A stretch of 27,800 bases of DNA from Bdellovibrionia bacterium (GTDB taxonomy: Bacteria > Bdellovibrionota > UBA1018). Where the stretch lies: assembly GCA_049424145.1 (NCBI GenBank), contig JBMSSC010000021.1, positions 1 to 27,800 of the forward strand, read 5' to 3'. Within the stretch, counting starts at the first letter, position 1, and each line of letters starts with the position of its first letter. The notes under the pieces were generated by a model, which worked only from the letters and a program-made list of their open reading frames with translations, made no database searches and had not been told where the DNA came from. Position numbers and translations under genes: made by a program. This document shows positions 4,210 to 27,414 of this stretch, one piece after another.

Positions 4210-4281
4210 TCCCTAGATTTCGCACATCCTGGGATTAGGCTCAATCAAGAAGTGGGGGTCGGCCCTTCTCCAAACGGTTCT

Positions 4282-8200: not shown

Positions 8201-8871
8201 TGGGTGGCAGGATCAAACTCTCGAATGCGATCCACCACATCATCAAAGAGCTCGATGCGTAGGGGTTTTTCTCGGTCGACTGAAAACACATCGAGGATAT
8301 CTCCTCGAATACAAAAGGTGCCTGGGTCCTCCACCGGATCGACCCGAAGGTAGCCTGCGGCGCCCAGCTGAGTGACGAGAGCTTCGCGCGTGAGGCTTGC
8401 GCCACAAGAGAGAGCGAGGGTGTGCTGAACAAACAGGTCCCTAGGTAGCGTACTCTGGCAGGCGGCAGCCCAAGTGGTTGCAATGATCTGTGGCTGAGTG
8501 GAATGGAGGAGGCTGTGGAGAGTTGCAAGCCGGATCAAGCGTGACTGAAGGGATAGAGCAATGGATCCATAAGGGGATTTCTCCCAAGTGGGAAAGGAAC
8601 GAAGAAGAGGCGGCTCAGAGCTCACCGCTTGAGCGAGGGTTTGAAAATTCGAGGTGAACTCTTCGAGTTGATCCGAAGTGGCGCACAGAACAACAAGACA
8701 GGCAGGGGAGTTTTGAGGTCGGAGGTGAGTTTTTTGGGTGAGAGCTTGTGCATAGTGAGCTACAAAAAAAGCCTGTGCCGGTGCATTGGAGCCCAGAATT
8801 CGAATCCCTGAGCTGGTTTTTGAGTGAAGGGCGGATTCAATCATCGCGGCCAAAGAAGAAGTGGAATTCAT
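5245..8871 (-). CDS. mfd: Transcription-repair coupling factor
   Basis: UvrB-homology module (GYLRVDPVEDPGTFCIRGDILDVF), RID (GDRVVHVEHGVG), CGDVGYGKTEV, IVDEEHRFG, TATPIPRTL, QIRGRVGRS, TRG motif DLEIRGGGDLLG. The ATG at 8871 is preferred over the GTG at 8925, which would overlap the divergent promoter. Confidence 0.97.
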   Translation of the reverse strand: MNSTSSLAAMIESALHSKTSSGIRILGSNAPAQAFFVAHYAQALTQKTHLRPQNSPACLVVLCATSDQLEEFTSNFQTLAQAVSSEPPLLRSFPTWEKSPYGSIALSLQSRLIRLATLHSLLHSTQPQIIATTWAAACQSTLPRDLFVQHTLALSCGASLTREALVTQLGAAGYLRVDPVEDPGTFCIRGDILDVFSVDREKPLRIELFDDVVDRIREFDPATQRTLPSSKPLESVFIPPAREVLIHSQNSDFLREKIKQRADDQGIPRLARDPILDSIKSGIYPEKSDGWAPFAYEKPGRLWDYLSDSFELMVSDPWSCQEEWVKFIEAQEGLAKKALEKKIILPQVSELFHDSGDWEKLTSTHTRISFESLDLLQSECKTQKAQEPGLRMNLKPLLQTLRSSLSPHSHTDSASLEPIPPPAPSFSDSSQPPSWDTLEPCFRAWLKDGYQILLTAPTESQLQRIRYLLEQRNLSCVTQQPASPGQITLLPGLLSESVHWPEEKLAVITESDLLGTRRPKKTPHRSSSKNPSPSQSWNSIQALSDLNLGDRVVHVEHGVGCYQGICRLHLQGALSDFLLLEYANQDRLYIPIYRLNAIQKYVGAGDSAPLDQLGSARFKKIKDQVKEEVKKLAFSLIDLYAKRKLQKGIIFPPNDRELREFEAQFPYDETPDQLQAIQDVMNDLESGQVMDRLVCGDVGYGKTEVGIRAAFKAVSAGKQVAVLVPTTILAQQHQISFQERMKDYPILIESLCRFRSKKEQKTILEAVSLGKIDIVIGTHRLLSQDVQFQDLGLIIVDEEHRFGVEHKERLKTLKLNTHVLTLTATPIPRTLHMALSGIREISLIKTPPVNRLPIHTYVSQWDENVIRNAIEFELSRGGQVFYLHNRVQTIQKTARRIHELVPQAKISVAHGQMNESELEKTMFEFYEKKSNVLVCTTLIESGIDLPSANTILIERADQLGLAQLYQIRGRVGRSQQRAYAYLLIPEQGAISEDAIKRLEVIQKFIELGSGFQVASHDLEIRGGGDLLGAQQSGNINAVGFDLYTELLEEAIQEIKGQPEESHSSLDPEIKTPFPCYLSEEYVPDIHSRLSLYRRLSAFNTEQPLEDLEQELRERFGSPPPEAQNLLWLIRIKILLKKTGIEALTVGPEKISLTPGKQNTFNPTRIIAMVSAYPHEYQLLPDSRLIAKMPTPSLRDLFFQLETCFKKFI

Positions 8872-8890
8872 CCTTGGCAATCTACTGAGC

Positions 8891-8919
8891 TTGACACGGT
8901 TTTTCAACTTCAGTAACCT
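8891..8919 (+). promoter_or_regulatory. Sigma70-type promoter for the nuo region
   Basis: TTGACA (8891-8896), 17 bp spacer, TAACCT (8914-8919), followed by a GGAG RBS and the ATG at 8946. Confidence 0.75.
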
Positions 8920-8945
8920 TTTCACAATCTTTGGAGAAGACCATC

Positions 8946-9422
8946 ATGACAGGCATGACAAGCAGCTGGGGTTCGTATTACGTGGTGTTCCTATCTGCGG
9001 TTTTATCCTTAGGGATTCCCTTGGTCTTAGGCGTGCTCTCTCTGGCCTTTATCCCTCGTAAAAAGCCTCAGGTTGCGGTGAGCTCGGAGCTGAAGAAAGT
9101 GGCGATTAACCAAACCGTGTTGGGCCAAAGGATGAACGTTCGCTTTTTTTTGGCAGCCAACGCCGCTTTGGTACTCATCACGCTCGCCTTAGAACTCATC
9201 CCCTGCGTGATGACTCTGCAAACCAATCATCCCGAGGATTTAATCAAGGGTCTCACCGCGATTGTGACGATTGCTGGATTTACTGTTTTAGGGTTGCTCT
9301 ATTCTGTGAGAAAAGGGGATATGGCTTGGTTAAAGACTTATCACTCAGATCCTTTGTCGGATTTTTCGGCCGATCCCTTAGGAGATTCACCTCTGGACTC
9401 TCAGGAGAGAAAGGCTCACTAA
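8946..9422 (+). CDS. nuoA: Divergent NuoA-like subunit (set 1)
   Basis: Three hydrophobic helices; RMNVRFFLAA aligns to [10 protein letters not shown] and YSVRKGDMAW to [10 protein letters not shown] of the second NuoA; first gene of the nuo run. Confidence 0.8.
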   Translation: MTGMTSSWGSYYVVFLSAVLSLGIPLVLGVLSLAFIPRKKPQVAVSSELKKVAINQTVLGQRMNVRFFLAANAALVLITLALELIPCVMTLQTNHPEDLIKGLTAIVTIAGFTVLGLLYSVRKGDMAWLKTYHSDPLSDFSADPLGDSPLDSQERKAH

Positions 9423-9434
9423 CGGTCTGACCTT

Positions 9435-9905
9435 ATGGGATCTTTTTATTTATCGACTGTCGGCAAGTTTTTAAGTTGGGCCCGATCCAAGTCCATTTGG
9501 TACATCTCCACAGGAAGTGGGTGCTGCGCCGATGAGGTCTTAGATTCCATGGGAGGACGTTACGACTTAGAGCGATTTGGGTGCGTGCCTCAAGTGGACC
9601 CCAGGCAGGCAGATCTGCTCATCGTCTGTGGTATGGTCTCTTATAAAGCGGCTCCTTACTTGAAAACTCTGTATGATTCCATGCTCTCCCCTAAGTATGT
9701 CTTAGCAGTTGGCGCATGTGCGAATTGTGGTGGGCCTTTTTCGCCCAAATACAGTTACTCCGTGGTCGCAGGAGTGGATCAAGTGATTCCTGTGGATGTG
9801 TATGTCCCGGGATGTCCGCCTCGACCTGAGGCCATTATGAACGGTTTGATTGCTTTACAGGAAAAAATCAGTGGACAAGACGCTTCTTTTAAAGACTTTG
9901 AATAA
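9435..9905 (+). CDS. nuoB: NuoB-like subunit (set 1), N2 cluster ligands intact
   Basis: [48 protein letters not shown]. Confidence 0.93.
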   Translation: MGSFYLSTVGKFLSWARSKSIWYISTGSGCCADEVLDSMGGRYDLERFGCVPQVDPRQADLLIVCGMVSYKAAPYLKTLYDSMLSPKYVLAVGACANCGGPFSPKYSYSVVAGVDQVIPVDVYVPGCPPRPEAIMNGLIALQEKISGQDASFKDFE

Positions 9906-10497
9906 AGCCCTGCCCGGCGTGGTTCTCGACTCTCAAGCCTTTGGTCGAACCGAAATCCCCTCGCTATGGATTGAGTTGAACTCGATCCACACGATTGCTC
10001 AGTTTTTAAAAACAACGGAGCCCCACTTTTTGGATTGGCTTGAGAATCTCTCAGTCGTGCAAGTCGATCAAGCCTTGGTGGTGAACTATTTTCTCAGATC
10101 CACACGCTCAAAGGATCAATTGGTGCTCCGAGGATCGGTCGTACCCGAATCTCCTTTAAAAAAAGTAGTTCTCTGCTCGACTCGCGCTATCTGGCCAATG
10201 GCTGAGCCTTGGGAGCAGGAAGCAGAAGAGCTCTTTGGAATCGCGTTTCGGAGCGACTTCACACAAAAAGAGATCGGAGTGAGGCGTCAAATTCTCCCTG
10301 AGGGTTGGGTGGGATTTCCTATGAGAAAAGAGTATGTTTTTCCCCAGGAAGTCTATGGAATCCCTCATCGCAGGGCGAAGCTCAAGCCAGAGCCGAATCC
10401 TCAGGACCCAAATGAGTCCGACTTCAGCTCAAGTGGGGATCCTCACGCGCGGAGCACTTCGTTAAGCGCTCACACCAAGAAAGACATGGGCTCATGA
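9871..10497 (+). CDS. nuoC: NuoC-like subunit (set 1)
   Basis: WEQEAEELFGIAF and ILPEGWVGFPMRKEY match the NuoC signature. The GTG start at 9871 is inferred (overlaps the nuoB end). Confidence 0.85.
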   Translation: MDKTLLLKTLNKALPGVVLDSQAFGRTEIPSLWIELNSIHTIAQFLKTTEPHFLDWLENLSVVQVDQALVVNYFLRSTRSKDQLVLRGSVVPESPLKKVVLCSTRAIWPMAEPWEQEAEELFGIAFRSDFTQKEIGVRRQILPEGWVGFPMRKEYVFPQEVYGIPHRRAKLKPEPNPQDPNESDFSSSGDPHARSTSLSAHTKKDMGS

Positions 10498-11630
10498 TTC
10501 AAGCCGATCAGGATTTTTTTGACTCCGATTTAACCGTTTGCGAAATTGGGCCTTACCATGGAGCTTTTCCTTCCCCAATGAGGATGCGCTTAAGCTTAGA
10601 TGGGGAAATTATTGCCCGAGCGGAAGTGGAAACGGGTTTTTTGCATCGGGGCTTAGAAAAAGCCTGCGAACTCCATCCTTGGTTCTCCTTAGTTTCGTAT
10701 GCTGATCATTTAGATCCCGAGGTGGCCCTTTTTGGGGAGTTGGCCGTGTGCCTAGCCGTTGAGCAGATCTGTGAAATTTCTGTTCCTAAGCGAGCCAAGG
10801 CGATTCGCATGATTTTATCTGAGTTAACCCGGATCTCTGCTCATTTGGCCTACCTCGTGCGCATGGCCAAGGTGGTGGGCTCAGAAACGATCATTCACTA
10901 TGTTTTAAGGGATCGCGAGAAGATTTTAGATCTCTTTGAGTTGCTCACGGGCGCTCGGTTTTCGCTCAACTTTTTACGCTTCGGCGGAGTCAATGCCGAT
11001 GTGACCGATGGTTTTATTGAGCGAGTGCTGGAAGTGTGTGAAATGATCCGGATTCGCATGAAAGAGTACAATGATCTATTCACCTTTAATCAGAGCTTTT
11101 TAAAGCGGACGTCATCGTTGGGGATCATTGATGCGCAGTGGATTCGAGCCTTTGGGGTTACTGGCCCAAATGCCCGTGCCTCGGGCATTGCCGAGGACTT
11201 TAGAAAGATTCATCCCTACTCGGGTTATGATGAGTTGGATTTTGAAGTTCCTGTGAGTCGCTCAGAGGCGGGAAAAAACGGGAGCGTCCATGATCGCTTT
11301 CTGCTTAGGCTGAGGGAAATGAATCAAAGCATCGAGATCCTCAAGCAAGTCTCAGATCATATTCCCTCAGGCGACTATCGCGTGGGAAAAGTGGGTCGGG
11401 ATTTTACTGTGCCTCCTGGCGAGGCCTATGCTCGAGTGGAGAGTGCTCGGGGACTCCTGGGCTGCTATGTGGTCTCTCATGGCACCCATTATCCTAACCG
11501 GGTTCAGTTTCGAACGGCGACTCAGGGAAATCTGATGCTGATTCCTCAGGTGGTCCCTGGGCTCAGAATTGAGGATTTACCCGTCTTTCTCGCCAGTTTA
11601 GATCTCGGAATCGCGGAGGCGGATCGATGA
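10494..11630 (+). CDS. nuoD: Divergent NuoD-like subunit (set 1)
   Basis: IGPYHG, LDGEII, GFLHRGLEK, ELTRISAHL, TGPNARASG, EAYARVESARG, C-terminal EADR; no NiFe CxxC motifs. Confidence 0.9.
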   Translation: MIQADQDFFDSDLTVCEIGPYHGAFPSPMRMRLSLDGEIIARAEVETGFLHRGLEKACELHPWFSLVSYADHLDPEVALFGELAVCLAVEQICEISVPKRAKAIRMILSELTRISAHLAYLVRMAKVVGSETIIHYVLRDREKILDLFELLTGARFSLNFLRFGGVNADVTDGFIERVLEVCEMIRIRMKEYNDLFTFNQSFLKRTSSLGIIDAQWIRAFGVTGPNARASGIAEDFRKIHPYSGYDELDFEVPVSRSEAGKNGSVHDRFLLRLREMNQSIEILKQVSDHIPSGDYRVGKVGRDFTVPPGEAYARVESARGLLGCYVVSHGTHYPNRVQFRTATQGNLMLIPQVVPGLRIEDLPVFLASLDLGIAEADR

Positions 11631-12706
11631 GTTCAGGTTTACTCTGGGTGATTTCTTGGTGCGATTTTCTGGGCTTCCCCTCGGATCTGCCTCAATGGTT
11701 TTATGCGCTGCTTTCGATTTTATGCATCTACTGGCTTGTGGTGGTTCCTTTTGGTCTCTTAGTGACTTTCTTAGATCGTAAGCTCAGTGCCGACTTACAA
11801 GCTCGCGTGGGTCCTAATCGTGCTGGGCCCAAAGGGGCTTTTCAGCCGATTGCTGATTTAATTAAGCTGCTTCAGAAAGAAAATCAGGCTTCTTGGTTTT
11901 GGGGAGAAAGTCTGTGGCTTGGGGTCCATACCATGGCCTTGTATTCCACGTTGGCGGTGTTGCCCTTGGGCTCACTGGCTCTTTTAGTGGACACCGAGGT
12001 CAGTGCGTTTTTACCTTTTTGGGCTGCTCTCGTGTTGGCGTTAGGAACGATGCTTTTAGGCTTGAGCCAAGGTTCCGTCTCAGGTTTGTTCGGGGGTATT
12101 CGAATCGCAGCGCAGTCGTTGGCCGGATCCCTTCCCGCTTTGGTGTCGATTCTCTGCGCGGGGGTGCGCACCGGAAGCTTCAAATGGAGCGCTTTTGCAG
12201 CCGTTCAGGAGTTTTCTCCTTGGACGTGGACGGTTTTTTCCAATCCCTTTGAGACCATGGCTTTTGGAGTGTTTGTGATGAGTGGAATGGTGCTACTTGC
12301 GATTCCTCCTTTAGATGGAGGGCTGTCCGTCTCGGATATTCATGGAGGCGTCTCCTCACACCTTCATGGACGCAGGCTGAGTCTTTATTTGTTTGGTCGA
12401 TTCTATGGATTCCTTCTATGGTCCTTGATTACTGTGGTGATGTTCCTGGGGGCTTGGCGCCTTCCGATGGGGCTTTCTGAGACTTTAAAGGAAGCCTACT
12501 CCTACAAAGTCCTCGCGTTTCTGGAGTTGACCCTACTTTTGGCTAAAACCTTGGTCCTGATGCTGTTGATCCTCTGGGTTGCACGAGTCAATTCGCGCAG
12601 TCGCGTGGATCAAATTACGGATTTCACCTGGAAAGTGCTGAGTCCGTTTTCCCTGTTGGCCCTTGTGGGGGCTAGTTTTTGGGTGAGTGGGAGGGCTTTC
12701 TGGTGA
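11627..12706 (+). CDS. nuoH: Divergent NuoH-like subunit (set 1)
   Basis: DRKLSADLQARVGPNRAGPKGAFQPIADLIKLLQKE and RSRVDQITDFTWKVLSP; multi-TM protein. Confidence 0.9.
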   Translation: MSSGLLWVISWCDFLGFPSDLPQWFYALLSILCIYWLVVVPFGLLVTFLDRKLSADLQARVGPNRAGPKGAFQPIADLIKLLQKENQASWFWGESLWLGVHTMALYSTLAVLPLGSLALLVDTEVSAFLPFWAALVLALGTMLLGLSQGSVSGLFGGIRIAAQSLAGSLPALVSILCAGVRTGSFKWSAFAAVQEFSPWTWTVFSNPFETMAFGVFVMSGMVLLAIPPLDGGLSVSDIHGGVSSHLHGRRLSLYLFGRFYGFLLWSLITVVMFLGAWRLPMGLSETLKEAYSYKVLAFLELTLLLAKTLVLMLLILWVARVNSRSRVDQITDFTWKVLSPFSLLALVGASFWVSGRAFW

Positions 12707-13236
12707 GACACTCAATTTTTCGGACCATCATCCTTTATGTTCGTGGGGTCTTCATTGGCGCGTGGTCAATTGTGGGTTCGTGCCTGACGGCTTTACCCTA
12801 CTTGTTTCGTTGGGATGAAATGAGAAAGGAAGTCACGGAAGGGTATCCTGACCCGGTTTCATCTAAAACGGCCGATGATCTACCGCCTCGCAGTCGGGGC
12901 CTATTATTCAACGATATCGATCGCTGCATTGGCTGCAAAGAATGTGAGAAGGCGTGTCCCACGGAGTCGATTCAAATTGAGGCAGAACCCGGAGCAGATG
13001 CATCGAAGATTTGGGTGTCTGTCTTTGATGTGGATTTCTCCAAATGCACCTTTTGTGGATTATGTGTGGAGGTCTGTGAGCCAGGGTCTTTAGTTCACAC
13101 CCGACAGTACGAGGGTGCGGCCTATCACTTAAAAGATTTGGTGGCCAGTTTTGGTCGCGGTCAAATCACCCCTGAGTATCGAGCCAAATGGGCTGCCATT
13201 CGCCAGATGAGTGAAAGCGATGAGGTGGTTTTATGA
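12703..13236 (+). CDS. nuoI: NuoI-like 2x[4Fe-4S] subunit (set 1)
   Basis: VTEGYP, LPPRSRG, CIGCKECEKACP and CTFCGLCVEVCEP; GTGA overlap with the nuoH stop. Confidence 0.9.
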   Translation: MRHSIFRTIILYVRGVFIGAWSIVGSCLTALPYLFRWDEMRKEVTEGYPDPVSSKTADDLPPRSRGLLFNDIDRCIGCKECEKACPTESIQIEAEPGADASKIWVSVFDVDFSKCTFCGLCVEVCEPGSLVHTRQYEGAAYHLKDLVASFGRGQITPEYRAKWAAIRQMSESDEVVL

Positions 13237-13294
13237 GCCTAAGAGATCGGTCTGGGAGTGACCCCAGCTGCGAGTTCTCAAGCAGGGAGAGGTT

Positions 13295-13789
13295 ATGATG
13301 GGATGGGTTTTCTCGGGCATTACTTTAGTGGCCGTGTTCATGACCTCATTTGATGGCAATATGAAGCGCTCCATCTTTGCGCTCTGGGTTGCGGGCCTGG
13401 GCGTCGGAGCCATTTACCTCACCATTGGAGCTGAGTTTTTAGCGATGGTCCAATGGGTCGTCTCCACGTTGGTGACCATCTCGTTTGTTTTTTTTTCCGT
13501 CATGTTTGGCGAGTACAAAACGTCTGTTTCCCATGAGACCTCCAACCCTTGGGTTTTAAAATTCTTTGCTCTGGTTTTGGGGCTGGGGTTTGCTGGAGTC
13601 ATTGGGGTGGGAACGCAGAACTTTTCCTTGAAGAACTTCTCAGTGGACTCCGGGGGAGCTGATTTAGCTTTAATCGGACAAAAACTCACGCAGGAAAACC
13701 TCCTCTCATTAGAAGTCTTGGCTTTAACCTTGTTTTTAGTCGTGGTGGGTGCCGGTGTGATTGCCCGCTCCGAAAAAAGGGGGCTGTAA
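13295..13789 (+). CDS. nuoJ: Divergent NuoJ-like subunit (set 1)
   Basis: Five TM segments, GAEFLAMVQ, IGQKL...LSLEVLALTLFLVVVGAGVIAR; RBS GGAGAGG; gene order. Confidence 0.85.
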   Translation: MMGWVFSGITLVAVFMTSFDGNMKRSIFALWVAGLGVGAIYLTIGAEFLAMVQWVVSTLVTISFVFFSVMFGEYKTSVSHETSNPWVLKFFALVLGLGFAGVIGVGTQNFSLKNFSVDSGGADLALIGQKLTQENLLSLEVLALTLFLVVVGAGVIARSEKRGL

Positions 13790-13790
13790 G

Positions 13791-14078
13791 ATGATGCTCG
13801 TTGCGGGCCTGATCGGGGGCCTAGGTTTAGTCTGCATGATTTCAAGAAGAACCTTATTGGGTTTACTCATGGGCATTCAGTTGTTGGTCTTAGGTTCCAC
13901 CATGATGTTTGTCTTGGCCGGGATTGCAGCAGGACTGCCCATTGAGGGTCATATTTTTGGTCTCTTCATCATTTTAGGTGGCGTTGCTCAACTCGTGGTG
14001 GGGTACGCACTTGCCATCCGTTTTTTCTTTTTGAAGAAGAAAATTTCTATGGATGAATTACAGGCGTTAAAACAATGA
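13791..14078 (+). CDS. nuoK: Divergent NuoK-like subunit (set 1)
   Basis: 95 aa, three TM segments, ISRRTLL...MGIQL, C-terminal SMDELQALKQ resembling the NuoK tail; gene order. Confidence 0.85.
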   Translation: MMLVAGLIGGLGLVCMISRRTLLGLLMGIQLLVLGSTMMFVLAGIAAGLPIEGHIFGLFIILGGVAQLVVGYALAIRFFFLKKKISMDELQALKQ

Positions 14079-16018
14079 TTAGCTCATCAAATCCACTCAC
14101 CCTTCTGACTCTCTGTACGTTATTCGTTCTTTTAATCGGTATGGTGTCGTTTATCTGGGGGAAACACTTACCAGGTAAAGGTCTCTGGCTCAGTTGGCTT
14201 GCCATGGTGATTTTTGTCGCAGGCCTAGGCATTGATTGCGGGCTGTTTTTTAATGAACCCTTTGAGGCAAAATCTTGGAGTGTTGGGTGGATTGGTTCCA
14301 GGCAGGATCTCGGAGCCATCACCATTGGTGTGTTTCAGGATGCCTTAGCCATTGCCATGAGCTTTCTAGCAGCCCTCGTTGCCATCACATTGATCGTGGA
14401 TCGAGCTGATTTGCCCAGTCAATGGGATCGCAATAAATCCTATGGCCCGTTGATTGTCTCGATGGCTGGTGTCGCTTTGTCGTGGAATTCGATGACTCCT
14501 TGGATGGCCCTAGGAGGCCTCATGTTTGTTATCCTGGGAGGCTTTCTATTGGGCGGCGTGGCTGGAGACTCCAATCAAGAGGCAAAGAGTGCTTCTCGAT
14601 TTTTAATGGAGCGAGTCTTTGGATTTCTCCTCTCGTTTTTGGGCTCCTGCGTTTTAGCCGTTTCAAGACCTGCGTTGACCTTAGATCAACCCCTTTCCTG
14701 GCTTTCTTCCGGGGGGAATCCAGCCTCCACCTGGGTGGGCAGTTTCCTTTTAGTGTTTGGACTTTTTTTACAAGCTCAGCCTTTTCCTTTTTTAGGCTGG
14801 GTGGTGCTGAGCTCGGAGCTCAGTCCTCCGTTTCGAATTCTATTAAATCAAATCTTTCCCGCTTGGAGCGCTTTTGCGTTATTAGTGAGGCTTGAACCGT
14901 TTTTAACAGGCCTGGGTTTGTTTCCTCATCTGGGCTGGTTTGCATTAGCTTCATCCATTTTAACCGTGTTTGTGGGGTTGTTTCAAAACCAGTGGCGTCA
15001 GGGCCTAGGGCTTTGGTTGTCTTCCGGTTTTTCCCTCTCGTTTGCGCTGCTGGCCTTTAGTGGACCTTTGGCTGCCATGAGCCTTCTTCTGGGTGTGAGT
15101 CTGGGGGCGTTAATTCTCTCCAAAGCGGCGGTTGGCTTGTCTGAGGAGAATTCAAAAAACCCTCTGCAGAAGAATCAGGGGTTTTGGACTCGGTTTGTGA
15201 TCATTTTAGGGGCCTCAGCCGGCTCAGGAATGATGGGCTTTGTTTCAGCCGTAGGGGGAGTGCGAGGGCTTGCCGATGCGCTTAATTTTCCTGGTCTGAT
15301 CACCTTGTTTGTGGTGGCAATTTTTCTCTTCGGTCTTTTGTGCTGGAAAGTGGCTTGGACTCTCACGCGATTAAAGCGAGTCTCCGATGCTTCCTGGTTA
15401 TCCATCTTCTTGCCCTTTTTTTGGGCCGTCTTGGCGATGGGCTGGGTTTGGACAGGCCTCATCTCAGGAGACCTTCTTTTGGGTGGTGCGGATCGCCTCA
15501 TCCCCTCGTTATTCTCCTATTTTTTTAACTCACAAGAGCTCGAAGTGATCCCTTCTCCGGAGTTGATCTCCGCATCGGGAATCTACTGGGGGGCTTTGGG
15601 CTTCTCCATGGCCACGGCGTTTTGGACGGCCGGACGAAAAGAGGATCGCTGGTTGAATTTAGCCCGCGTGATGCCCAAAACAACTCGGTTTATTGCCAGC
15701 GGCTATGGAGTGGATCAACTCGTTCATCGGATGCTGTGCGTGATCATTTCCTTGGGTCAATTTTCTGAACGGATGATTGATCAGCGGGTATGGAGCCTCT
15801 GGATCCCGCGCGGGCTCAGTGGGGGGGTTTTGAAGGTTTCTCGGTGGGCGGATCGCTTGGACCTAGCGATTTCTTTTTACTTGGGGCGTCTTCTCAGGCT
15901 CAGTGTGGAGCTTCCTGCAAAAGCATTGCAAAGGGTTCACACGGGGGATCTCCGCTGGTATTTATTTTTTGCTTTAACGTCGGGTCTGGTTTTGTTGTCG
16001 TATTTTTTAAAAAATTAG
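14075..16018 (+). CDS. nuoL: Highly divergent NuoL-like antiporter-fold subunit (set 1)
   Basis: 647 aa polytopic protein; DALAIAM, GYGVDQL and LQRVHTGDLRWYL match the NuoL N-terminal and C-terminal (post-lateral-helix) motifs; lies between K and M. Confidence 0.8.
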   Translation: MISSSNPLTLLTLCTLFVLLIGMVSFIWGKHLPGKGLWLSWLAMVIFVAGLGIDCGLFFNEPFEAKSWSVGWIGSRQDLGAITIGVFQDALAIAMSFLAALVAITLIVDRADLPSQWDRNKSYGPLIVSMAGVALSWNSMTPWMALGGLMFVILGGFLLGGVAGDSNQEAKSASRFLMERVFGFLLSFLGSCVLAVSRPALTLDQPLSWLSSGGNPASTWVGSFLLVFGLFLQAQPFPFLGWVVLSSELSPPFRILLNQIFPAWSAFALLVRLEPFLTGLGLFPHLGWFALASSILTVFVGLFQNQWRQGLGLWLSSGFSLSFALLAFSGPLAAMSLLLGVSLGALILSKAAVGLSEENSKNPLQKNQGFWTRFVIILGASAGSGMMGFVSAVGGVRGLADALNFPGLITLFVVAIFLFGLLCWKVAWTLTRLKRVSDASWLSIFLPFFWAVLAMGWVWTGLISGDLLLGGADRLIPSLFSYFFNSQELEVIPSPELISASGIYWGALGFSMATAFWTAGRKEDRWLNLARVMPKTTRFIASGYGVDQLVHRMLCVIISLGQFSERMIDQRVWSLWIPRGLSGGVLKVSRWADRLDLAISFYLGRLLRLSVELPAKALQRVHTGDLRWYLFFALTSGLVLLSYFLKN

Positions 16019-16028
16019 AGGGAATCCT

Positions 16029-17528
16029 GTGAGCCATCATTTAATTAGCATGACTGTTTTCTTTCCTCTGCTGGGAACCATCCTTCAAGCCATCTTGCCG
16101 TCGTCCAGAAGTCGGTGGGTGAGCTTTTCGGCCAGTCTACTCTCCAGCGTCTGTGCTGCAGTACTGGTGATTTCGATGCAAGGGCAGAGTGCGGAGCTGC
16201 AAGCCATTGAGTCGTATTCTTGGGTGGGGTCCTACGCCATCAGCTACGATATGGGTGTGGATGGTTTAAATGCTCTGATGGCCCTTTTGATTGCTATTTT
16301 ATTCCCGGTGCTCATTGCCTCAGAGTGGAATCAAAAATCCGGGGTTCGAGGGATGCATGGGTTATTTCTCATTCTTCAAACTTCACTATTTGGGGCCGTA
16401 TTTGCTCAGGACTTGTTTTTACAATTTTTCTTTTGGGGCTTAAGCGCACTCCCGTTTTACTTCTTAGTGGGGATTTGGGGAGGCGAGAATCGGGAGAAAG
16501 CTGCGTTTCGTTCCATGGTGGCTTCCTCTTTGGGAAATGCACTGATTTTTGCAGCCTTGGTTTTGATCTACTACTCAGTGGACCCTCATAGTTTTGCTCT
16601 CAAAGAGCTTAGTGGTGGAAAGCTTGCGGGGAAGTCTTTTGAGTTTTTGGGCTTTCAACTCCCTGTGGCGACAGTGGCTTTTGGGTTAATGAGTGCTGGG
16701 ATTTCCATGCGGGCTCCGATTTGGCCGTTTCATGGGTGGTTTACGGAAGTGGCCCAGGAGGCACCGCCTTCGGTCATGGTAGCGCTTGCGGCAGGGTGTG
16801 TGCCTGTGGCGATCTATATTTTTATTCGGGTGAGTTATTTTTTATTTCCTGAGATCTTAAGCGATGTCACCGGATTCATTGTGGGTGTGGGCATCATTAA
16901 CCTCATCATGGGGGGGTTGTGTGCTGCCTATCAGAGGAGTTTACGAAAACTGCTAGCGTTCATCTGTTTAAGTGAGCTGGGGTTGGTGTTGATGGGGATT
17001 GGCTCTCTGAGTCCGGTCGGTTTAGTTGGTGCTGTCTATCAACAGATGATCTTAGGGTTAAGCTTGGCAGGATTTGGTTTGTTTTCGGGGGTGATTTCTG
17101 AGCGCACCGGGCACTGCTTATTTCAAGATGAAGCAGGAGTGAGGACCTATGGCGGGATTGCTTCGAAGGCTCCTTTTTTCTCGGTCTTCACGGGGATTGT
17201 GGTGGCTTCTCTCATTGGATTCCCAGGTCTTGCTGGATTTGTGGGTCACGCGCTTGTGATGATTGGAAGCTATTCCATTCACCCCGCAGCCGTCTTAGTG
17301 GTGGGGGGAACTTTATTGTTGGCCTCCTACTACCTTTTTCATATGTACCGTGGGATTTTTTTAGGAAAACCAGCGGAGCATTCAGAGACGTTCTCTGATC
17401 TCACCCTGCGTGAGCGCGCGTATTTATTTCCTGTGGTCTCGGGACTTTTGTTTTTTGGTCTGTATCCCAAGCCCGTGATTGAGCTGATTCGTCCGACTAT
17501 TTTAACCCTACTGTCTACGGTCAAGTGA
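16029..17528 (+). CDS. nuoM: Divergent NuoM-like subunit (set 1)
   Basis: YDMGVDGL, QDLFLQFFFW, PFYFLVGIWGGENR, PIWPFHGWF...EAP, GFPGLAGFVG, DLTLRE, FGLYPKP. Confidence 0.9.
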   Translation: MSHHLISMTVFFPLLGTILQAILPSSRSRWVSFSASLLSSVCAAVLVISMQGQSAELQAIESYSWVGSYAISYDMGVDGLNALMALLIAILFPVLIASEWNQKSGVRGMHGLFLILQTSLFGAVFAQDLFLQFFFWGLSALPFYFLVGIWGGENREKAAFRSMVASSLGNALIFAALVLIYYSVDPHSFALKELSGGKLAGKSFEFLGFQLPVATVAFGLMSAGISMRAPIWPFHGWFTEVAQEAPPSVMVALAAGCVPVAIYIFIRVSYFLFPEILSDVTGFIVGVGIINLIMGGLCAAYQRSLRKLLAFICLSELGLVLMGIGSLSPVGLVGAVYQQMILGLSLAGFGLFSGVISERTGHCLFQDEAGVRTYGGIASKAPFFSVFTGIVVASLIGFPGLAGFVGHALVMIGSYSIHPAAVLVVGGTLLLASYYLFHMYRGIFLGKPAEHSETFSDLTLRERAYLFPVVSGLLFFGLYPKPVIELIRPTILTLLSTVK

Positions 17529-17534
17529 GGTCTT

Positions 17535-19004
17535 GTGAGAGAATTCTTCCTAATTCTGCCTGAAGTGTGCATTGTTTTAACCCTCGCCTTTGTGATCGCA
17601 GGGGAGATTACCCATTCAGGGGAGAGAATTCGATTGATCGGTACGGCTGCACTCATTGGGATTGCAGGAGCCCTCATTCAAACGATCATTTCCTACGGGT
17701 ATGGCCCCACCAAGGTTTTTGGGGGAAGTCTTTCAATTGACGGGTTTTCCCTATTTTTTAAGCTCGTGTTTATGACCTTAGGGATGTTGGCCATTTTTTT
17801 AATGTTCCAGTCCAAGGAAATTGCCGTAGGTAGGAGAACGGAGTACATCGCTCTTGTTTTAGCCTCCATTCTTTCAATGTGTTTAGTGGCGTCAGCCTCA
17901 GATTTGGTGGTGGCCTTTTTGGCTCTCCTTTTTATGAATCTGATCTCCTATGTTCTGGCTGCTTATGGACAAAAATCAGCGTATTCCGCCGAGGCTGGGA
18001 TTAAATTCCTTGCGTTTGGAGCCGTCTCCAGTGCGCTCCTTCTTTATGGGTTTGCCATTTTATTTGCCTCCACCCACACGCTCAACTTGTATGAAATGCA
18101 CCAAGCGCTTCTGGCCAATCCGCTTTCCTTTGAGGTGATGTGGGTCGTTTTTAGTTTGTGTTTTTTAGCCTTCAGTTTTCAGTTGGGCACGTTTCCTATG
18201 TATCTGCTGGTGCCAGATGTACTCGAGGGAGCCCCCACCCCGGTTTCTGCTTTTTTATCCATTGGGCCCAGAGCCGCGGGGTTTGCTCTTGTGACTCGAC
18301 TTTTGATTGTCCTCTTTGCTCAGCCTGGAGCGGTGCCGGGACGCTGGGAAGTTTTAGGGGAAATGCACTGGACTCAGATCGTTTCTTTGGTTTCGGGAAT
18401 TACGATGATCGTGGGGGCGTTGCTTGCATTTCGGCAACAGGGAGCTAAGCGCTTAGTGAGTGACCTTGTGGTTGCCGAAAGTGGATTTTTGCTCATGGGG
18501 CTTTTAGTGCTCGATGAAGTGGGAATTGCAGCGTTGCTTTATAACCTCGTGGTTCAGTTGTTTGCGCTCATTGGGATTTTCTTCATCCTGGGGTTCTTGG
18601 TGGACGAACTTCAATCGGACCGATTGGTCTGCATGCGAGGGATGTTGAAGAGAGCAGTACCTGAGTGTATTTGTTTGATCTTGTTTCTTTTCTGTCTCGT
18701 GGGTAGCCCTCCTTTGCCCGGATTTATCGGAAAGTTTACTTTGATTGGATCTGCCATTCGTCATAAAAGATTGGCTCTAGCAGGGGTTGCTATTTTTTCC
18801 ATGGTGCTTTCGATTGCCTCAGTGACGCGGCTTTCGTACGATTTGATCTCCCCTGTGAAGGGTGAATCTCCCGCGGCTGTGCCCGTGAGTTATTCCCGAA
18901 AAACGTTCTTGGCGTTTTTAATAATACCGATGGCACTAGTCGGGATTTTTGCTAATTTCGTACTCGGGTGGGCAGGCCGATCTTTAGGTTTTATTTTCCG
19001 GTAG
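17535..19004 (+). CDS. nuoN: Divergent NuoN-like subunit (set 1)
   Basis: IDGFSLFFK, SAEAGIKFLAFGAVSSALLLYG, PDVLEGAPTPVSAFLS, PPLPGFIGKF. Confidence 0.9.
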   Translation: MREFFLILPEVCIVLTLAFVIAGEITHSGERIRLIGTAALIGIAGALIQTIISYGYGPTKVFGGSLSIDGFSLFFKLVFMTLGMLAIFLMFQSKEIAVGRRTEYIALVLASILSMCLVASASDLVVAFLALLFMNLISYVLAAYGQKSAYSAEAGIKFLAFGAVSSALLLYGFAILFASTHTLNLYEMHQALLANPLSFEVMWVVFSLCFLAFSFQLGTFPMYLLVPDVLEGAPTPVSAFLSIGPRAAGFALVTRLLIVLFAQPGAVPGRWEVLGEMHWTQIVSLVSGITMIVGALLAFRQQGAKRLVSDLVVAESGFLLMGLLVLDEVGIAALLYNLVVQLFALIGIFFILGFLVDELQSDRLVCMRGMLKRAVPECICLILFLFCLVGSPPLPGFIGKFTLIGSAIRHKRLALAGVAIFSMVLSIASVTRLSYDLISPVKGESPAAVPVSYSRKTFLAFLIIPMALVGIFANFVLGWAGRSLGFIFR

Positions 19005-19038
19005 CGCCCAAAGCCTGAGAAGGCTATAAGAGTTGCAT

Positions 19039-19398
19039 ATGAGCTACATTCCTGTGTTGATCTTAATGTTGGCGGGCCTGACCGTTGGAAGCGCTATCCT
19101 GCTTCTGTCTTCGCTTTTAGGGGGTTCCGTTCCGAACAAACGCAAAGGGATGCCGTTTGAGTGTGGAGTGCCCGCCTATGGTTCGGCTCGTCATCGGTTT
19201 TCAGTGAAATTTTACTTGGTAGCGATTTTATTTCTTCTTTTTGATGTGGAAGGAATTTTCTTTTTTCCATGGGCAGTTGCCTTTAAGAAATACCTGGCGA
19301 TCAATTCCTTTATTCTTTTTGAGATGGGTTTTTTCGCTCTCATTTTAGTGGTGGGCTACGTTTACGTTTTAAGAAAAGGCGCTCTGAAGTGGGAGTAG
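19039..19398 (+). CDS. nuoA: NADH-quinone oxidoreductase subunit A (set 2)
   Basis: [33 protein letters not shown]. Confidence 0.96.
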
Positions 19399-19434
19399 GC
19401 CTTTTTTCTCAGGCTCGTGGTTGAGGAGATATTC

Positions 19435-19974
19435 ATGGGTAAAGACGGTTCAGTTGGTTTTTTCACAACACGCTTGGATGCTTTTATTAATTGGGGCCGA
19501 AAAAACGCGCTCTGGCCGCTTCCTTTTGGGACGAGCTGTTGCGGGATTGAAATGATGGCTACGCTGTGCTCGGATTATGATATGTCCCGCTTCGGAGCAG
19601 AGGTGGTGCGCTTTTCCCCCAGGCAAAGTGACCTTCTTATTGTGGCAGGGATTATTAACTTAAAAATGGCTCCGGTCTTAAAGACGGTCTATGACCAGAT
19701 GAGCGATCCCAAATTTGTGATGTCCTTTGGGGCTTGCGCGTCGTCAGGAGGGATCTTCAACGTGTACAGTGTGCTTCAAGGCATTGACACGATGATCCCG
19801 GTGGATGTCTATGTGCCAGGATGTCCTCCTGCTCCAGAAGGAGTGCTTCACGCCTTAGTGAGGCTTCAGGAGATGGTGGCTCGCGGTGAGACTCATTCTC
19901 AGAGAAAGCTTGCGCAGCTGAAAAACCCCACGGTGAAGGCCGTGCAAGACACATCAGAATCAGGCAGGGGATGA
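19435..19974 (+). CDS. nuoB: NADH-quinone oxidoreductase subunit B (set 2)
   Basis: [44 protein letters not shown] before the ATG at 19435. Confidence 0.96.
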
Positions 19975-19977
19975 TCC

Positions 19978-20547
19978 ATGGATATTCGACAGCCGATACC
20001 TACGAATGGCGGAGACTGGCTTTCAAAATTTGGTGAGATCTGGAAAAAACAAGTCGAGCAGCTCAGAGAAAAGTTGGCCTCCTCGATTGAAGAGGTTCGC
20101 ATGCCACCGGATTACCCCACGGATGTTCCAGTGATTTATGCCAAGAAAGAGGCCATTGTTTCGGTGCTGCGTTATTTGAAGGAGACTCCCGGGTTTGAGT
20201 ACACCTTCTTGGCAGACATCACGGCAACCGATGAGGGCGGGCACCCTCGGTTTGAAGTGGTTTATAACTTGTTTTCCATGACCCAAAAGAACCGGATTCG
20301 CGTCAAGGCACGAGTGGCGGAGAATGAGGAAATTCCCACGGTGATTTCCGTTTGGAAGGGCGCCAATTGGGCGGAGCGAGAAGTGTTCGATATGTTTGGT
20401 GTGAAGTTTAAAGATCACCCCAATTTGAGAAGAATTTTAATGGACACTCGGTGGGTGGGTCATCCGTTGAGGAAGGATTATCCTTTAAAGGGATATCAGA
20501 TGTTCACGGATGCTCAGGCGGTGGACCCGTCTCTTTTAGAAAAGTAG
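19978..20547 (+). CDS. nuoC: NADH-quinone oxidoreductase subunit C (set 2)
   Basis: RFEVVYNL, ANWAEREVFDMFG, HPNLRRIL, GHPLRKDYP. Confidence 0.96.
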   Translation: MDIRQPIPTNGGDWLSKFGEIWKKQVEQLREKLASSIEEVRMPPDYPTDVPVIYAKKEAIVSVLRYLKETPGFEYTFLADITATDEGGHPRFEVVYNLFSMTQKNRIRVKARVAENEEIPTVISVWKGANWAEREVFDMFGVKFKDHPNLRRILMDTRWVGHPLRKDYPLKGYQMFTDAQAVDPSLLEK

Positions 20548-20562
20548 GCAATTGGGTAGATT

Positions 20563-21801
20563 ATGACACAAAGCTTAGACACCTCAAATATCAACTCAGG
20601 AAGACCCGAAGGCAGTGATCCCGATGAGCTCTGGGATAACTCAGGAGTGATCGTCAATATTGGGCCCACTCATCCGGCGATGCACGGAGCCCTTCGGATG
20701 GTGGCCCAATTGGATGGGGAAACCATTGAGAAGTCCTATTGTGAGTTCGGCTTTACTCATCGAGCCAAAGAAAAGCTGGGTGAAAATCGGACCTTTCATA
20801 ATTTTATCGTCTATACGGATCGACTCAACTACTGCTCCGCTTTAACCAACAACGTGGTTTATGCTCTTTCGGTTGAAAAGCTCATGGGCATTGAGGTGCC
20901 TGAGCGGTGCGTCTGGCTTCGGATGATTTGCTGTGAGCTGGCTCGGGTGATCGATCATTTGATCTGCATTGGGATCAATGCCGTGGACTTAGGGGCATTT
21001 TCTTTCTTTCTCTATGGGTTTCACCAACGAGAAGAAGCCTACACGTTGATTGAAAAACTCTGTGGAGCGCGCCTAACGACCTCTTACGCTCGTATTGGCG
21101 GAATGATGGCGGATGCTCCTGAGGGGTTTGAGCGAGAGCTGAAGGCTTGGGTCAACAAAACCCGCACTGTGATTGACGAAATGGATGAGCTACTCACCAA
21201 TAACAAAATTTGGAGAGAGCGAACCGTGGGTGTCGGTGTGTTTAATAAAGAGCAGTGCCTAGAGTATAGCTACAGTGGGCCCAATGCCCGGGCTGCTGGC
21301 ATTGACCTGGATTTAAGGCGAGATCAGCCCGTTTTATTTTACAAGGACGTCGAGTTTGATGTGCCCATTTGCCAAAACGGGGATGTCTACGATCGCTACA
21401 TGATTCGGTTGGCTGAAATTCGTCAGTCGTTGAACATTTTAAGTCAGTGTGCGGATAAGATCCGCAAAGGTCCAATTTGGACCGAAGATAAGAGGGTGAG
21501 AATCCCTCAAAAAGAAGTGGTTCATAACACGATGGAAGGTCTCATTCATCACTTCAAGTTCTTCATGAGCGGCTTTGAGGTGCCCGAAGGTGAGGCTTAC
21601 ACTCAGTTTGAAGCCACCAATGGAGAGCTGGGGTTTTACATTGTCAGTCGGGGATCTCCCAGAGCGCATCGAATGAGGATTCGAGGTCCTTCCGTTTGGC
21701 ACTATCAAGGCTTATCTCCCATGGTCAAAGGGGAGAAGATTGCGGACATGGTTGCTGCTTTAGGCAGTATTAATATTATTGCAGGTGAATTGGATCGCTA
21801 G
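20563..21801 (+). CDS. nuoD: NADH-quinone oxidoreductase subunit D (set 2)
   Basis: NIGPTHPAMHGALR, YTDRLNY, AVDLGA, GELDR. Confidence 0.97.
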   Translation: MTQSLDTSNINSGRPEGSDPDELWDNSGVIVNIGPTHPAMHGALRMVAQLDGETIEKSYCEFGFTHRAKEKLGENRTFHNFIVYTDRLNYCSALTNNVVYALSVEKLMGIEVPERCVWLRMICCELARVIDHLICIGINAVDLGAFSFFLYGFHQREEAYTLIEKLCGARLTTSYARIGGMMADAPEGFERELKAWVNKTRTVIDEMDELLTNNKIWRERTVGVGVFNKEQCLEYSYSGPNARAAGIDLDLRRDQPVLFYKDVEFDVPICQNGDVYDRYMIRLAEIRQSLNILSQCADKIRKGPIWTEDKRVRIPQKEVVHNTMEGLIHHFKFFMSGFEVPEGEAYTQFEATNGELGFYIVSRGSPRAHRMRIRGPSVWHYQGLSPMVKGEKIADMVAALGSINIIAGELDR

Positions 21802-21835
21802 GCGATCGAATTCAGATCAAAGAGGCTGTGGATTC

Positions 21836-22312
21836 ATGAGTGCAAAAATTCTTTCAACTAAGTTTTATAGCCGAATGCAAAAGCTGGAGCCGCGCTATCC
21901 CACAAAAGTTGCTCTGCTTTTGCCCGCTTTGCATGCGGCTCAAGATGAGTTTGGGTGGTTACCCGGTGATGTGATGGATGAGATTGCCGAGTACATTGGG
22001 ATTCATCCGGCCCAGGTCCGAGAAGTGGCTAGCTTCTACACGATGTACAACTTAAAGCCCGTGGGCAAATACCATTTGAAGTTTTGCACCAATGTGGCCT
22101 GCTGTCTGAGAGGCTCAGACGAGCTGGTCGAGCATTGTGAGAAAAAGTTTGGAATTAAACGCGGCGAGACCACGCGGGATCGAAAATTCACCTTAATGGA
22201 AGAAGAATGCTTAGGGGCTTGTGCTACAGCTCCTGCAATGATGCTGAATCATGATTATCACGAGAATTTGGATGTTCAGAAGCTGGATCAGCTTTTAGAG
22301 AGTTTGGAGTAA
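21836..22312 (+). CDS. nuoE: NADH-quinone oxidoreductase subunit E
   Basis: LLPALHAAQ, VASFYTMY, N1a ligands CTNVAC...ECLGAC; GAGG RBS before the ATG at 21836. Confidence 0.95.
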   Translation: MSAKILSTKFYSRMQKLEPRYPTKVALLLPALHAAQDEFGWLPGDVMDEIAEYIGIHPAQVREVASFYTMYNLKPVGKYHLKFCTNVACCLRGSDELVEHCEKKFGIKRGETTRDRKFTLMEEECLGACATAPAMMLNHDYHENLDVQKLDQLLESLE

Positions 22313-22315
22313 GTC

Positions 22316-24999: not shown

Positions 25000-25002
25000 G
25001 TT

Positions 25003-26115: not shown

Positions 26116-26118
26116 TTT

Positions 26119-27406: not shown

Positions 27407-27414
27407 GAGTAGAT

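Follow-up and report, generated by a model that had tools for sequence, protein, structure and literature searches.

The window analysed here is the whole of a 27.8-kb contig (JBMSSC010000021.1, positions 1 to 27,800) of the Bdellovibrionia bacterium assembly GCA_049424145.1 (Bdellovibrionota; UBA1018), and it carries two gene clusters of the respiratory complex I (Nuo) type in tandem. The first, designated set 1, comprises A B C D H I J K L M N in that order, eleven frames on the forward strand (8931/8946-19004), none of them interrupted by a stop, and the second, set 2, is a canonical nuo operon that starts 28 nt past the stop of set 1 N. Set 1 has kept the core subunits and the iron-sulfur (Fe-S) cysteines of complex I and has lost nearly all of the residues held to perform its quinone chemistry and proton pumping. 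The finding is real and robust. By gene content and fold, set 1 belongs to the complex I superfamily, nearest to the 11-subunit types that have no NuoEFG, and is without the functional features that define them. Few energy-converting machines are as conserved as complex I, and there is still debate about how its quinone reduction is coupled to proton pumping. In this case an entire lineage keeps the eleven core subunits, under selection as strong as that on the working enzyme, without the residues held to do the chemistry or the pumping.

Gene content, residue states and conservation of set 1

An earlier note on this DNA had described eleven uninterrupted frames in the order ABCD-HIJKLMN, lacking E, F and G and lying immediately upstream of a normal complex I, and the list of open frames, Pfam and NCBIfam searches and a structural model of L bear this out. 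Genes for NuoE, NuoF and NuoG are absent between D and H of set 1 and present only in set 2. Nine of the set 1 proteins were named by Pfam/NCBIfam (Nuo B, C, D, H, I, J, K, M and N), with bit scores for set 1 versus set 2 of 239/351 for D, 164/393 for H, 57.5/161 for C, 45/133 for J and 45/97 for K, and with B as an exception at 97/91. The features of the two sets are as follows.

8946-9422, + strand: NuoA-like protein with three transmembrane helices; Pfam Oxidored_q4 at E=0.0014, aligning to NuoA over the three helices and the C-terminal motif
9435-9905, + strand: NuoB-like protein, carrier of cluster N2; Oxidored_q6, 97 bits, four N2 cysteines present
9850-10497, + strand: NuoC-like protein; Complex1_30kDa, 57.5 bits; start uncertain, overlapping the end of B; low-complexity C-terminal tail
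10494-11630, + strand: NuoD-like protein with a putatively remodelled quinone pocket; family score, alignment and AlphaFold2 (AF2) fold
11627-12706, + strand: NuoH-like protein; NADHdh, 164 bits; best NCBIfam model FpoH
12679-13236, + strand: NuoI-like protein, 2x[4Fe-4S]; eight cysteines and an additional N-terminal hydrophobic helix
13295-13789, + strand: NuoJ-like protein; Oxidored_q3, 45 bits
13761-14078, + strand: NuoK-like protein; likely start at an ATG near 13791, judged from ortholog lengths of 95-96 aa
14075-16018, + strand: NuoL-like protein of 647 aa, diverged beyond the family models; AF2 model, Foldseek and hhalign
16029-17528, + strand: NuoM-like protein; Proton_antipo_M, 132 bits
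17535-19004, + strand: NuoN-like protein; family match and MAFFT alignment
19033-27800, + strand: set 2, canonical nuoABCDEFGHIJK and the first 119 codons of nuoL, which is cut by the contig end; full Pfam/NCBIfam scores

The likely start of set 1 nuoA is the ATG at 8946, which has an upstream GGAG (the frame lister gives TTG 8931). ATGA overlaps join C/D, D/H and K/L, an alternative GTG start of nuoI at 12703 would yield a GTGA overlap with H, and the other gaps are at most 58 nt, in agreement with the translational coupling proposed beforehand. Nothing resembling a terminator was listed by a scan for the 28 nt that separate the sets. Given these short gaps and overlaps and the absence of a listed terminator between the sets, set 1 and set 2 likely form one long operon and would be co-transcribed. 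The N-terminal interface motif of set 1 NuoH (R37, D63, K66, K70) is kept, and set 1 NuoI has an insert with Asp66/Asp67 that is specific to set 1.

Searches of Pfam, NCBIfam and PDB sequences gave no match for set 1 L, even with E values of up to 10 allowed. An AF2 model built on a 21-ortholog profile (mean pLDDT 82.9, pTM 0.81) displayed 14-16 membrane helices; a single helix of 76 residues spans 546-621, and a C-terminal transmembrane segment comes after it at 626-646. All 50 Foldseek matches listed for this model were antiporter-like (TM-score 0.6-0.72, 12-16 % identity), comprising 49 NuoL, ND5 or NdhF chains of solved complex I or NDH-1 structures and one MrpA of the Bacillus Mrp complex, and an Atlas model of the protein likewise matched NuoL families structurally. 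Alignment by hhalign to a profile of 17 canonical NuoL proteins gave a probability of 98.5 % and an E value of 2.9e-14. The C-terminal QxGxxxxY motif aligns with NuoL, and the anchor motif of the lateral helix (Q619, G624, W628, Y629) is at least 90 % conserved. Taken together, the AF2 model, the structural matches and the profile-profile alignment identify set 1 L as a NuoL homolog with a predicted lateral helix, diverged past the reach of family models. For set 1 D, the AF2 model (pLDDT 89, pTM 0.90) matched 49-kDa, NuoD or NdhH chains in 50/50 listed Foldseek hits at a TM-score of about 0.9, and the folds of both NuoL and NuoD are predicted to be intact.

Residue states were read from MAFFT alignments to the E. 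coli K-12 nuo operon and the set 2 paralogs, and then to orthologs from related genomes (15-21 per set 1 subunit and 10-19 per set 2 subunit; E. coli numbering throughout), with L aligned via hhalign. Several of the positions considered in M, N, L and H are ones that we take to be key from their invariance in E. coli and set 2. Others are named in the sections consulted of PMC8357420, namely Tyr273 and His224 of D (the quinone headgroup ligands), Asp79/Glu81 of A, Glu55 of J, Glu36/Glu72 of K, Glu133 of N, Glu157 of H and Glu144 of M, and in those of PMC4938563 (Glu144, Lys229 and His254 of L). The replacement of mechanistic residues that the earlier note had read in D, A, H, J, K, L, M and N of the window was found in all eight subunits and throughout the lineage. 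In set 1 D, His224 occurs in 0/19 proteins (Pro in 17), Tyr273 in 0/19 (Pro in 16, Ser in 3) and Asp325 in 0/19, versus 16/16 for each in set 2; the protein of the window has Pro at both the His224 and the Tyr273 position. The Asp79/Glu81 positions of A are acidic in none and hydrophobic in all of 15 set 1 proteins (D/E in 19/19 of set 2), and Tyr59 of J is present in 0/20 and 10/10, respectively. Glu157, 216 and 218 of H have an acidic residue in 0/20 set 1 proteins and Glu228 in 1/20, Glu241 is replaced by Arg in 18/20, and set 2 keeps these five positions, along with the acidic ones at 36, 213 and 220, in 17/17. Both glutamates of K are mostly Gln (Glu36 in 18/21, Glu72 in 16/21; Glu in 17/17 and 16/17 of set 2).

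The antiporter-like subunits follow the same pattern. Set 1 M has Glu144 in 0/21, Arg at Lys234 in 21/21, Pro at Lys265 in 20/21, His322 in 2/21, His348 in 0/21 and an acidic residue at Glu407 in 0/21, with all six residues present in 17/17 set 2 proteins. In N, Glu133 is Gln (13/20) or Leu (7/20), Lys217 is Gln in 14/20, Lys247 is Arg in 15/20 and His305 remains in 2/20, against 16/16 for each in set 2. In L, the positions of Glu144 and His334 fall in gaps, and Asp178, Lys229, His338, Lys342 and Lys399 are found in 0/21, with Gln at Lys229 in 15/21; Arg175 is kept in 13/21, and set 2 has each of these residues in 16/16. Many of the replacements are conserved in their turn, and they are isosteric analogues of the original residues, either neutral (Gln for Glu) or permanently charged (Arg for Lys). 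Conserved charged residues peculiar to set 1 include E99, Q117 and E156 in M and E10, E24, E30 and E377 in N.

The Fe-S cysteines persist, as had been claimed: the window has 4/4 in NuoB (N2) and 8/8 in NuoI (N6a/N6b), and among the orthologs the four N2 cysteines are present in 17-18/18 NuoB proteins and all eight in 20/20 NuoI proteins. Set 1 D contains no Ni-Fe cysteines and has IGPYHGAFPS at the position of the N-terminal motif and SLDLGIAEADR at that of the C-terminal one.

Querying related genomes with set 1 L returned matches in 28/41, including 21/24 of the same family, all of them full-length open frames unless cut by a contig end. In 19/20 fetched loci set 2 A comes immediately after set 1 N, the twentieth locus ending inside N at the end of its contig, and the same adjacency holds in 7/7 more divergent loci. 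The gene mfd lies divergently upstream of set 1 in 16/20 related loci and in both loci of the shrunken form described below, and set 1 gene lengths are nearly constant across the 20 loci. A scan of named records with a seven-row L alignment yielded 24 loci, 22 with the two sets side by side and two cut by contig ends. All 24 are titled Bdellovibrionota, Oligoflexia, Bdellovibrionales, Bdellovibrionia, Bacteriovoracaceae or Bdellovibrio, and 22 are flagged as metagenome-assembled genomes (MAGs); they probably overlap with the related-genome loci, so that the two sets of counts are not independent. Two of the named records, FG-1 and FG-2, are assigned to family, order and class UBA1018 of Bdellovibrionota, with the proposed name 'Bdellonasia', in PMC13200544, whose consulted sections do not discuss complex I copies.

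Selection was estimated by the Nei-Gojobori method for four locus pairs, of which only L038/L039 was unsaturated (dS 0.41-0.47) and two were saturated. For L038/L039, dN/dS was 0.058 over the eleven set 1 genes versus 0.048 over set 2 A-H, with individual set 1 genes ranging from 0.005 (I) to 0.19 (C) and L at 0.105. A second close pair gave 0.012-0.10 for six set 1 genes. The values for set 1 K of three pairs and set 2 B of L035/L045 are artefacts, a stop inside the tblastn match having shifted the codon register; the set 1 total of L045/L046 (0.165) was inflated by the artefact in K and was disregarded. The stretch is also covered by contigs from four metagenome runs, which come from three other studies, and no indel is listed for them. 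Of 233 strain differences, 40 are listed, and these are synonymous in 16/20 cases for set 1 and in 19/20 for set 2, two of the four non-synonymous set 1 differences lying in the low-complexity tail of C.

The recurring tandem, the same losses in about 20 orthologs and a dN/dS of 0.058 indicate that set 1 is a conserved, selected state and not decay, and the recurrence of the pattern in about 20 orthologous clusters excludes chance. The earlier note had argued against random decay, which holds, and had proposed checking orthologs for the same substitutions with dN/dS below 1, which is what was observed. Since the cluster is conserved in its erased state, it should have some job other than quinone reduction or pumping.

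Distribution, graded forms and origin

A profile of L run over 401 genomes of the phylum gave strong matches (E <1e-19) almost only in the order of the window, in 52/57 genomes of its family and in single genomes of five other families. One strong match lay outside the order, in another family of the phylum (E 1.7e-31). This outlier and the weaker matches (E 1e-4 to 1e-15) were rejected as further instances of set 1: the three loci inspected are other nuo-type clusters nearer to set 2, formed by membrane-arm runs of A-H-J-K-L-M-N, one of them also with C, E and F. NuoD-like genes were found in all 116 genomes of the order that were searched. As a separate observation, clusters of the membrane arm only (A-H-J-K-L-M-N) occur in other Bdellovibrionota families away from B, C, D and I, sometimes two per locus (L074 5602-12975; L075 5554-12779 and 15541-19884; L077).

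Within the order, the cluster upstream of set 2 exists in three states, which we designated half-erased, fully erased and shrunken. In the half-erased form of families f7 and f2 (L084, L085), D keeps Tyr273 and has Ile at His224 and Lys/Gln at Asp325, H is without Glu157, 216 and 218, N keeps Glu133, and M keeps Glu144, Lys265, His322, His348 and Glu407, with Lys234 already Arg. Most families, including that of the window, carry the fully erased form. In family f10 (19 genomes; two loci, L092 8511-15060 and L093) the cluster has shrunk to about 6.5 kb between mfd and canonical nuoA, and encodes B (125 aa), D (335 aa) and I (137 aa) together with a two-helix protein of 74 aa and six hydrophobic proteins in the range of 80-510 aa; its membrane proteins measure 74, 269, 116, 80, 299, 327 and 510 aa. 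In the loci of f9 and f10, B and D have no separate C gene between them. The f10 membrane proteins matched no Nuo-type Pfam family and gave no BLAST match to the Nuo proteins of the window, one having a weak, sub-threshold HlyIII hit. The family nonetheless keeps 4/4 B cysteines, 8/8 I cysteines and the Pro..Pro-Glu..His signature of D, and its two species share 91-100 % protein identity. The cysteines of B and I are thus kept in every form checked. On the simplest reading, the tandem is ancestral to the order and vertically inherited, and its functional elements were given up stepwise. The graded series would then supply an order of loss, with the quinone-site His and the NuoH channel going before the Tyr and the antiporter residues, and these before the size of the membrane arm.

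A third, separate ABCDHIJKLMN cluster, set 3, is present in three relatives (L080 2908-13220, L081 6820-17209 and L086 6996-17333) and was not detected by tblastn in the genome of the window. Set 3 keeps His224, Tyr273 and Asp325 of D, all seven NuoH glutamates, Asp79/Glu81 of A, Tyr59 of J, both K glutamates in 2/3 loci (the third has Gly at Glu72) and the residues of M and N, the other exceptions being Leu at M Lys234 and Gln at N His305 in 2/3. These residues of set 3 indicate that complexes without EFG normally keep the machinery in this lineage, as the earlier note had stated for such enzymes in general.

In a maximum-likelihood (ML) tree of D proteins, set 1 formed a single clade (SH-aLRT 98) in which the half-erased forms were sister to the rest (100), and set 2 displayed the same basal split; end branches measured 0.26-4.3 changes per site in set 1 versus 0.12-0.40 in set 2. 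This tree, with few outgroups and a careful model, did not separate the relations of sets 1, 2 and 3. A FastTree phylogeny of 171 D proteins, which has long branches and is rooted on E. coli alone, placed set 1 and 44 library proteins in one clade (96), nested among short-D and C-D-fused types without EFG that include set 3, with set 2 separate (96); supports for set 1 among the short-D, EFG-less types were 91-99. Near the base of the set 1 clade lie clusters with named members from Methanosarcina (FpoD, which has Pro at 224 and keeps the Tyr), Bathyarchaeota, Heimdallarchaeota and Anaerolineales. This suggests, as a lead, that set 1 may descend from a complex of the Fpo/NUO11 type rather than from a duplication of set 2, an origin that the FastTree phylogeny does not support, though the ML tree would allow it.

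Comparison with known systems places set 1 in the complex I superfamily and apart from its described members. It shares with complex I (NuoA-N of E. coli, Nqo1-16 of Thermus thermophilus) the same 11 core subunits in the same order, the ligands of N2, N6a and N6b and the lateral helix of NuoL, and differs in having no NuoEFG, no quinone ligands and almost none of the pumping residues. Group 4 membrane-bound [NiFe] hydrogenases have four Ni-Fe cysteines in their large subunit, whereas set 1 D has none. The Ehr complexes reportedly have a smaller, hydrogenase-type gene set, as Marreiros et al. are said to have described in 2013. They are relatives of complex I and group 4 hydrogenases whose large subunit has neither Ni-Fe cysteines nor a recognized acceptor site and whose function is unassigned, according to the sections consulted of PMC6349859 and PMC4758237, and they are thought to translocate charge via Mrp-like subunits (PMC6349859). 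Set 1 D is like them in having neither Ni-Fe cysteines nor quinone ligands; set 1 differs in its full Nuo order with A, C, J, K, L, M and N, in the NuoL lateral helix and in the loss of translocation residues. The 11-subunit types without EFG, as described in the consulted parts of the literature ('NUO11' of PMC4758237, Methanosarcina Fpo, cyanobacterial NDH-1 and the Desulfitobacterium complex of PMC11238625), have the same ABCDHIJKLMN content and a short NuoD. They keep the acceptor-site Tyr and the pumping residues, as illustrated by set 3 and by the Tyr of FpoD, whereas set 1 keeps neither. We found no description of such a cluster in the literature searched, which included main-text sections of PMC12361115, PMC4758237, PMC13200544 and PMC4453560; supplementary fig. 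S2 of PMC4758237, on Bdellovibrio nuo clusters, may bear on this.

The NuoD pocket and possible roles of set 1

Set 1 D has gained conserved residues where it lost the quinone ligands, namely Asp272 (19/19), Glu274 (17/19) and His333 (19/19). E. coli position 333 corresponds to Phe147 of T. thermophilus Nqo4 (constant offset of 186), and F147 is listed among the Q-chamber residues of Nqo4 in PMC4758237, in the part consulted. With a profile built from 24 set 1 D proteins, 1.84 billion representative proteins were searched; of the best 150 matches, 80 keep His224 and a Tyr or Trp at 273, and 70 do not. The combination of an acidic residue at 274 with His at 333 was found in 26 of these 70 and in none of the 80. 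This signature is absent from the half-erased forms and present in the shrunken f10 form. These data suggest that the quinone-headgroup pocket of D was rebuilt with conserved polar residues, and not merely broken. Among the library proteins, further NuoD-like lineages (P0131, P0146, P0059, P0110, P0115 and P0138) are also without His224 and/or Tyr273, with named members from Bathyarchaeota, Heimdallarchaeota and Anaerolineales.

From the residues lost, we think it likely that set 1 neither reduces quinone at the canonical site nor pumps. With moderate confidence, we further propose that it forms a non-pumping, membrane-anchored, complex I-derived Fe-S module that has a new role beside canonical complex I and acts on something other than quinone. 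Under this proposal, the set 1 proteins would fold and assemble into an L-shaped complex in which selection preserves the peripheral Fe-S module, made up of the N2 ligands of NuoB and the N6a/N6b ligands of NuoI, both held on NuoD. The former headgroup pocket of NuoD would present Pro and Pro in place of His and Tyr, together with the new Asp, Glu and His, whilst the seven membrane subunits would act as a chemically neutralized anchor or scaffold with the lateral-helix strap of NuoL kept. Read in one operon with canonical nuo, set 1 would probably work beside canonical complex I, most plausibly as an uncoupled electron-transfer or redox-active module. Of the five functions put forward in the earlier note, the data favour such a non-pumping Fe-S module on an inert anchor and weigh against a transporter with new specificity, since the charged residues gave way to Gln, Arg, Pro and Gly instead of shifting to other positions, and since one family has a reduced membrane arm. 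A more far-reaching version of the same idea, offered tentatively, is a 'pseudo-complex I' in which the whole 11-subunit machine was turned into something new during the history of one uncultured class of Bdellovibrionota: its axis would be neutralized by the same Glu-to-Gln and Lys-to-Arg exchanges that experimenters make, and the Pro/Asp/Glu/His site beside N2 would catalyse or sense non-quinone chemistry in an obligatory partner of the complex I of the same operon. If so, the forms in sister families would amount to a ready-made evolutionary dissection of the coupling between redox chemistry and pumping.

Several observations count against the proposed Fe-S module. The loss of activity is read from residues, and loss of His224 does not inactivate by itself, the Methanosarcina FpoD cluster having Pro there with the Tyr kept. 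Set 1 NuoH is still acidic at 36 (17/20), 213 (18/20) and 220 (18/20), and NuoN keeps Lys158 (20/20) and Lys395 (17/20), which leaves room for a residual or rewired path. The residues of NuoL were mapped through a profile alignment at 14 % identity, and the geometry of the new Asp, Glu and His relative to N2, along with any cavity there, is judged by homology. An electron donor is not evident: set 1 is without EFG, and a six-frame search of the 95 %-complete genome gave no POR_N or Rnf-Nqr match, although korAB is reported for two related MAGs in the consulted part of PMC13200544. In one relative, codon 196 of set 1 D (G035; L032 15207-16343, minus strand) is an in-frame TAG in place of the Thr of orthologs, the gene being otherwise well conserved. 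No RNA runs covering the stretch were listed.

The main rival, which we regard as unlikely, is that set 1 is a pure structural partner, in which the clusters serve folding only and the complex has no redox role, acting as a scaffold, assembly platform or membrane organizer of complex I, for example in a heterodimer or supercomplex. Its constant placement directly upstream of set 2 across the order, in an apparent single operon, fits this, as do the isosteric, structure-preserving replacements in the membrane arm, the conserved anchor motif of the L lateral helix and the lack of a donor module or an evident ferredoxin source in the genome. The most constant parts of set 1, however, are the 12 Fe-S cysteines and the new polar pocket beside N2, not the membrane arm; in f10 the arm shrinks and becomes unrecognizable while B, D and I persist; and contact between set 1 and set 2 proteins is presumed. 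It is improbable that set 1 is instead an NADH-fed branch, in which its Q-module borrows the NuoEFG of set 2 to form a non-pumping NADH dehydrogenase that relieves redox pressure. The two sets do share one operon with a single EFG, and the set 1 NuoI and NuoD folds are canonical, but the acceptor is missing with the quinone ligands gone, and the FastTree phylogeny, weakly rooted as it is, groups set 1 D with short-D/Fpo types without EFG and with set 3, so that the ancestor probably never bound EFG. A predicted complex of set 1 NuoI 44-185 with set 2 NuoG scored 0.00, in a run without controls, and has no bearing either way.

A rewired, energy-coupled enzyme, in which the remodelled pocket would take another lipophilic acceptor and ions would follow another path, appears similarly doubtful. 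The half-erased f7/f2 forms, which keep Tyr273, the Glu/Lys/His set of NuoM and Glu133 of NuoN, speak for it, and so do the ability of Fpo to work with Pro at the His224 position, the conserved charged residues of its own that set 1 has in M and N, and the two NuoN lysines that are kept (K158, K395). Against this, the central Glu/Lys axis running through A, J, K, L, M and N has, in the fully erased forms, either an uncharged residue or a fixed Arg at every position, none of the 20 set 1 NuoH proteins has the channel glutamates 157, 216 and 218, f10 has a shrunken membrane arm, and a continuous path through the new conserved charges is presumed. That set 1 donates uncoupling subunits, which would replace set 2 paralogs in hybrid complexes and so tune pumping stoichiometry, seems very improbable: the sole point for it is that paralogs of all 11 core subunits are co-encoded, whereas in the full-size forms all 11 genes are kept together and evolve together, with the set 1 D tree mirroring that of set 2 D, and identities of 22-47 % to the set 2 paralogs, with L below detection, make compatible interfaces doubtful. 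Slow neutral decay, or an assembly artefact, is scarcely credible. Set 1 evolves faster than set 2, going by the end branches of the D tree, and one ortholog has the internal stop mentioned above; opposed to these are the low dN/dS, the predominance of synonymous strain differences, intact frames in dozens of genomes of several families and, for an artefact, the presence of the same stretch in contigs from runs of at least three other studies.

If the complex is made, the complex I scaffold would have a second use, for which the candidates are the Fe-S module with a new site by N2 and the structural partner of complex I. A practical consequence concerns annotation. The set 1 genes are currently named as ordinary NADH-quinone oxidoreductase subunits (L as hypothetical), and metabolic reconstructions would therefore wrongly count two proton-pumping complex I enzymes. 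New in this work are the identity of L by modelling, the graded series, the constant cysteines, the pocket signature and the residue-keeping set 3.

Genomic context and further observations

The contig that forms the window (C21) belongs to a 2.69-Mb genome bin of 193 contigs, rated 95 % complete. Its minus strand from 1 to about 8871 carries uvrA, a phosphomannomutase gene, two SurA-like PPIase genes and mfd. The mfd frame is listed from GTG 8925, and an ATG at 8871 with an upstream AAGG gives a typical Mfd N-terminus (window 8866-8925, minus strand). The divergent gap of 60-75 bp between mfd and set 1 nuoA contains one further feature.

8891-8919, + strand: candidate promoter TTGACA-17 nt-TAACCT (-35 at 8891-8896, -10 at 8914-8919), read from the sequence, with a perfect -35 and 3/6 matches in the -10

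The earlier note had called this promoter near-consensus, which was an overstatement: the -35 is perfect as described, but the -10 matches the consensus at half of its positions and the candidate was missed by a consensus promoter scan.

At the other end of the window, the remainder of set 2 nuoL, followed by nuoM and nuoN, was located on contig C70 (1-4836). Set 2 NuoG (23578-24999) is short, at 473 aa versus 908 aa in E. coli, and most of the C-terminal molybdopterin-like domain is missing. The NuoG of family f10 is likewise short (477-485 aa), and a correlation between short NuoG and a full-size set 1 was rejected on this ground. In one relative, the locus L014 (12131-16267; assembled in 5 contigs) has set 2 B, C, D and F each in two pieces and all set 1 genes intact, reflecting either assembly indel errors or real frameshifts. 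The genome of the window also encodes an additional antiporter-like (NuoL/Mrp-type) protein outside both sets, on contig C125 (about 4235-5101, minus strand), with 35 % identity to E. coli NuoL over 279 residues.

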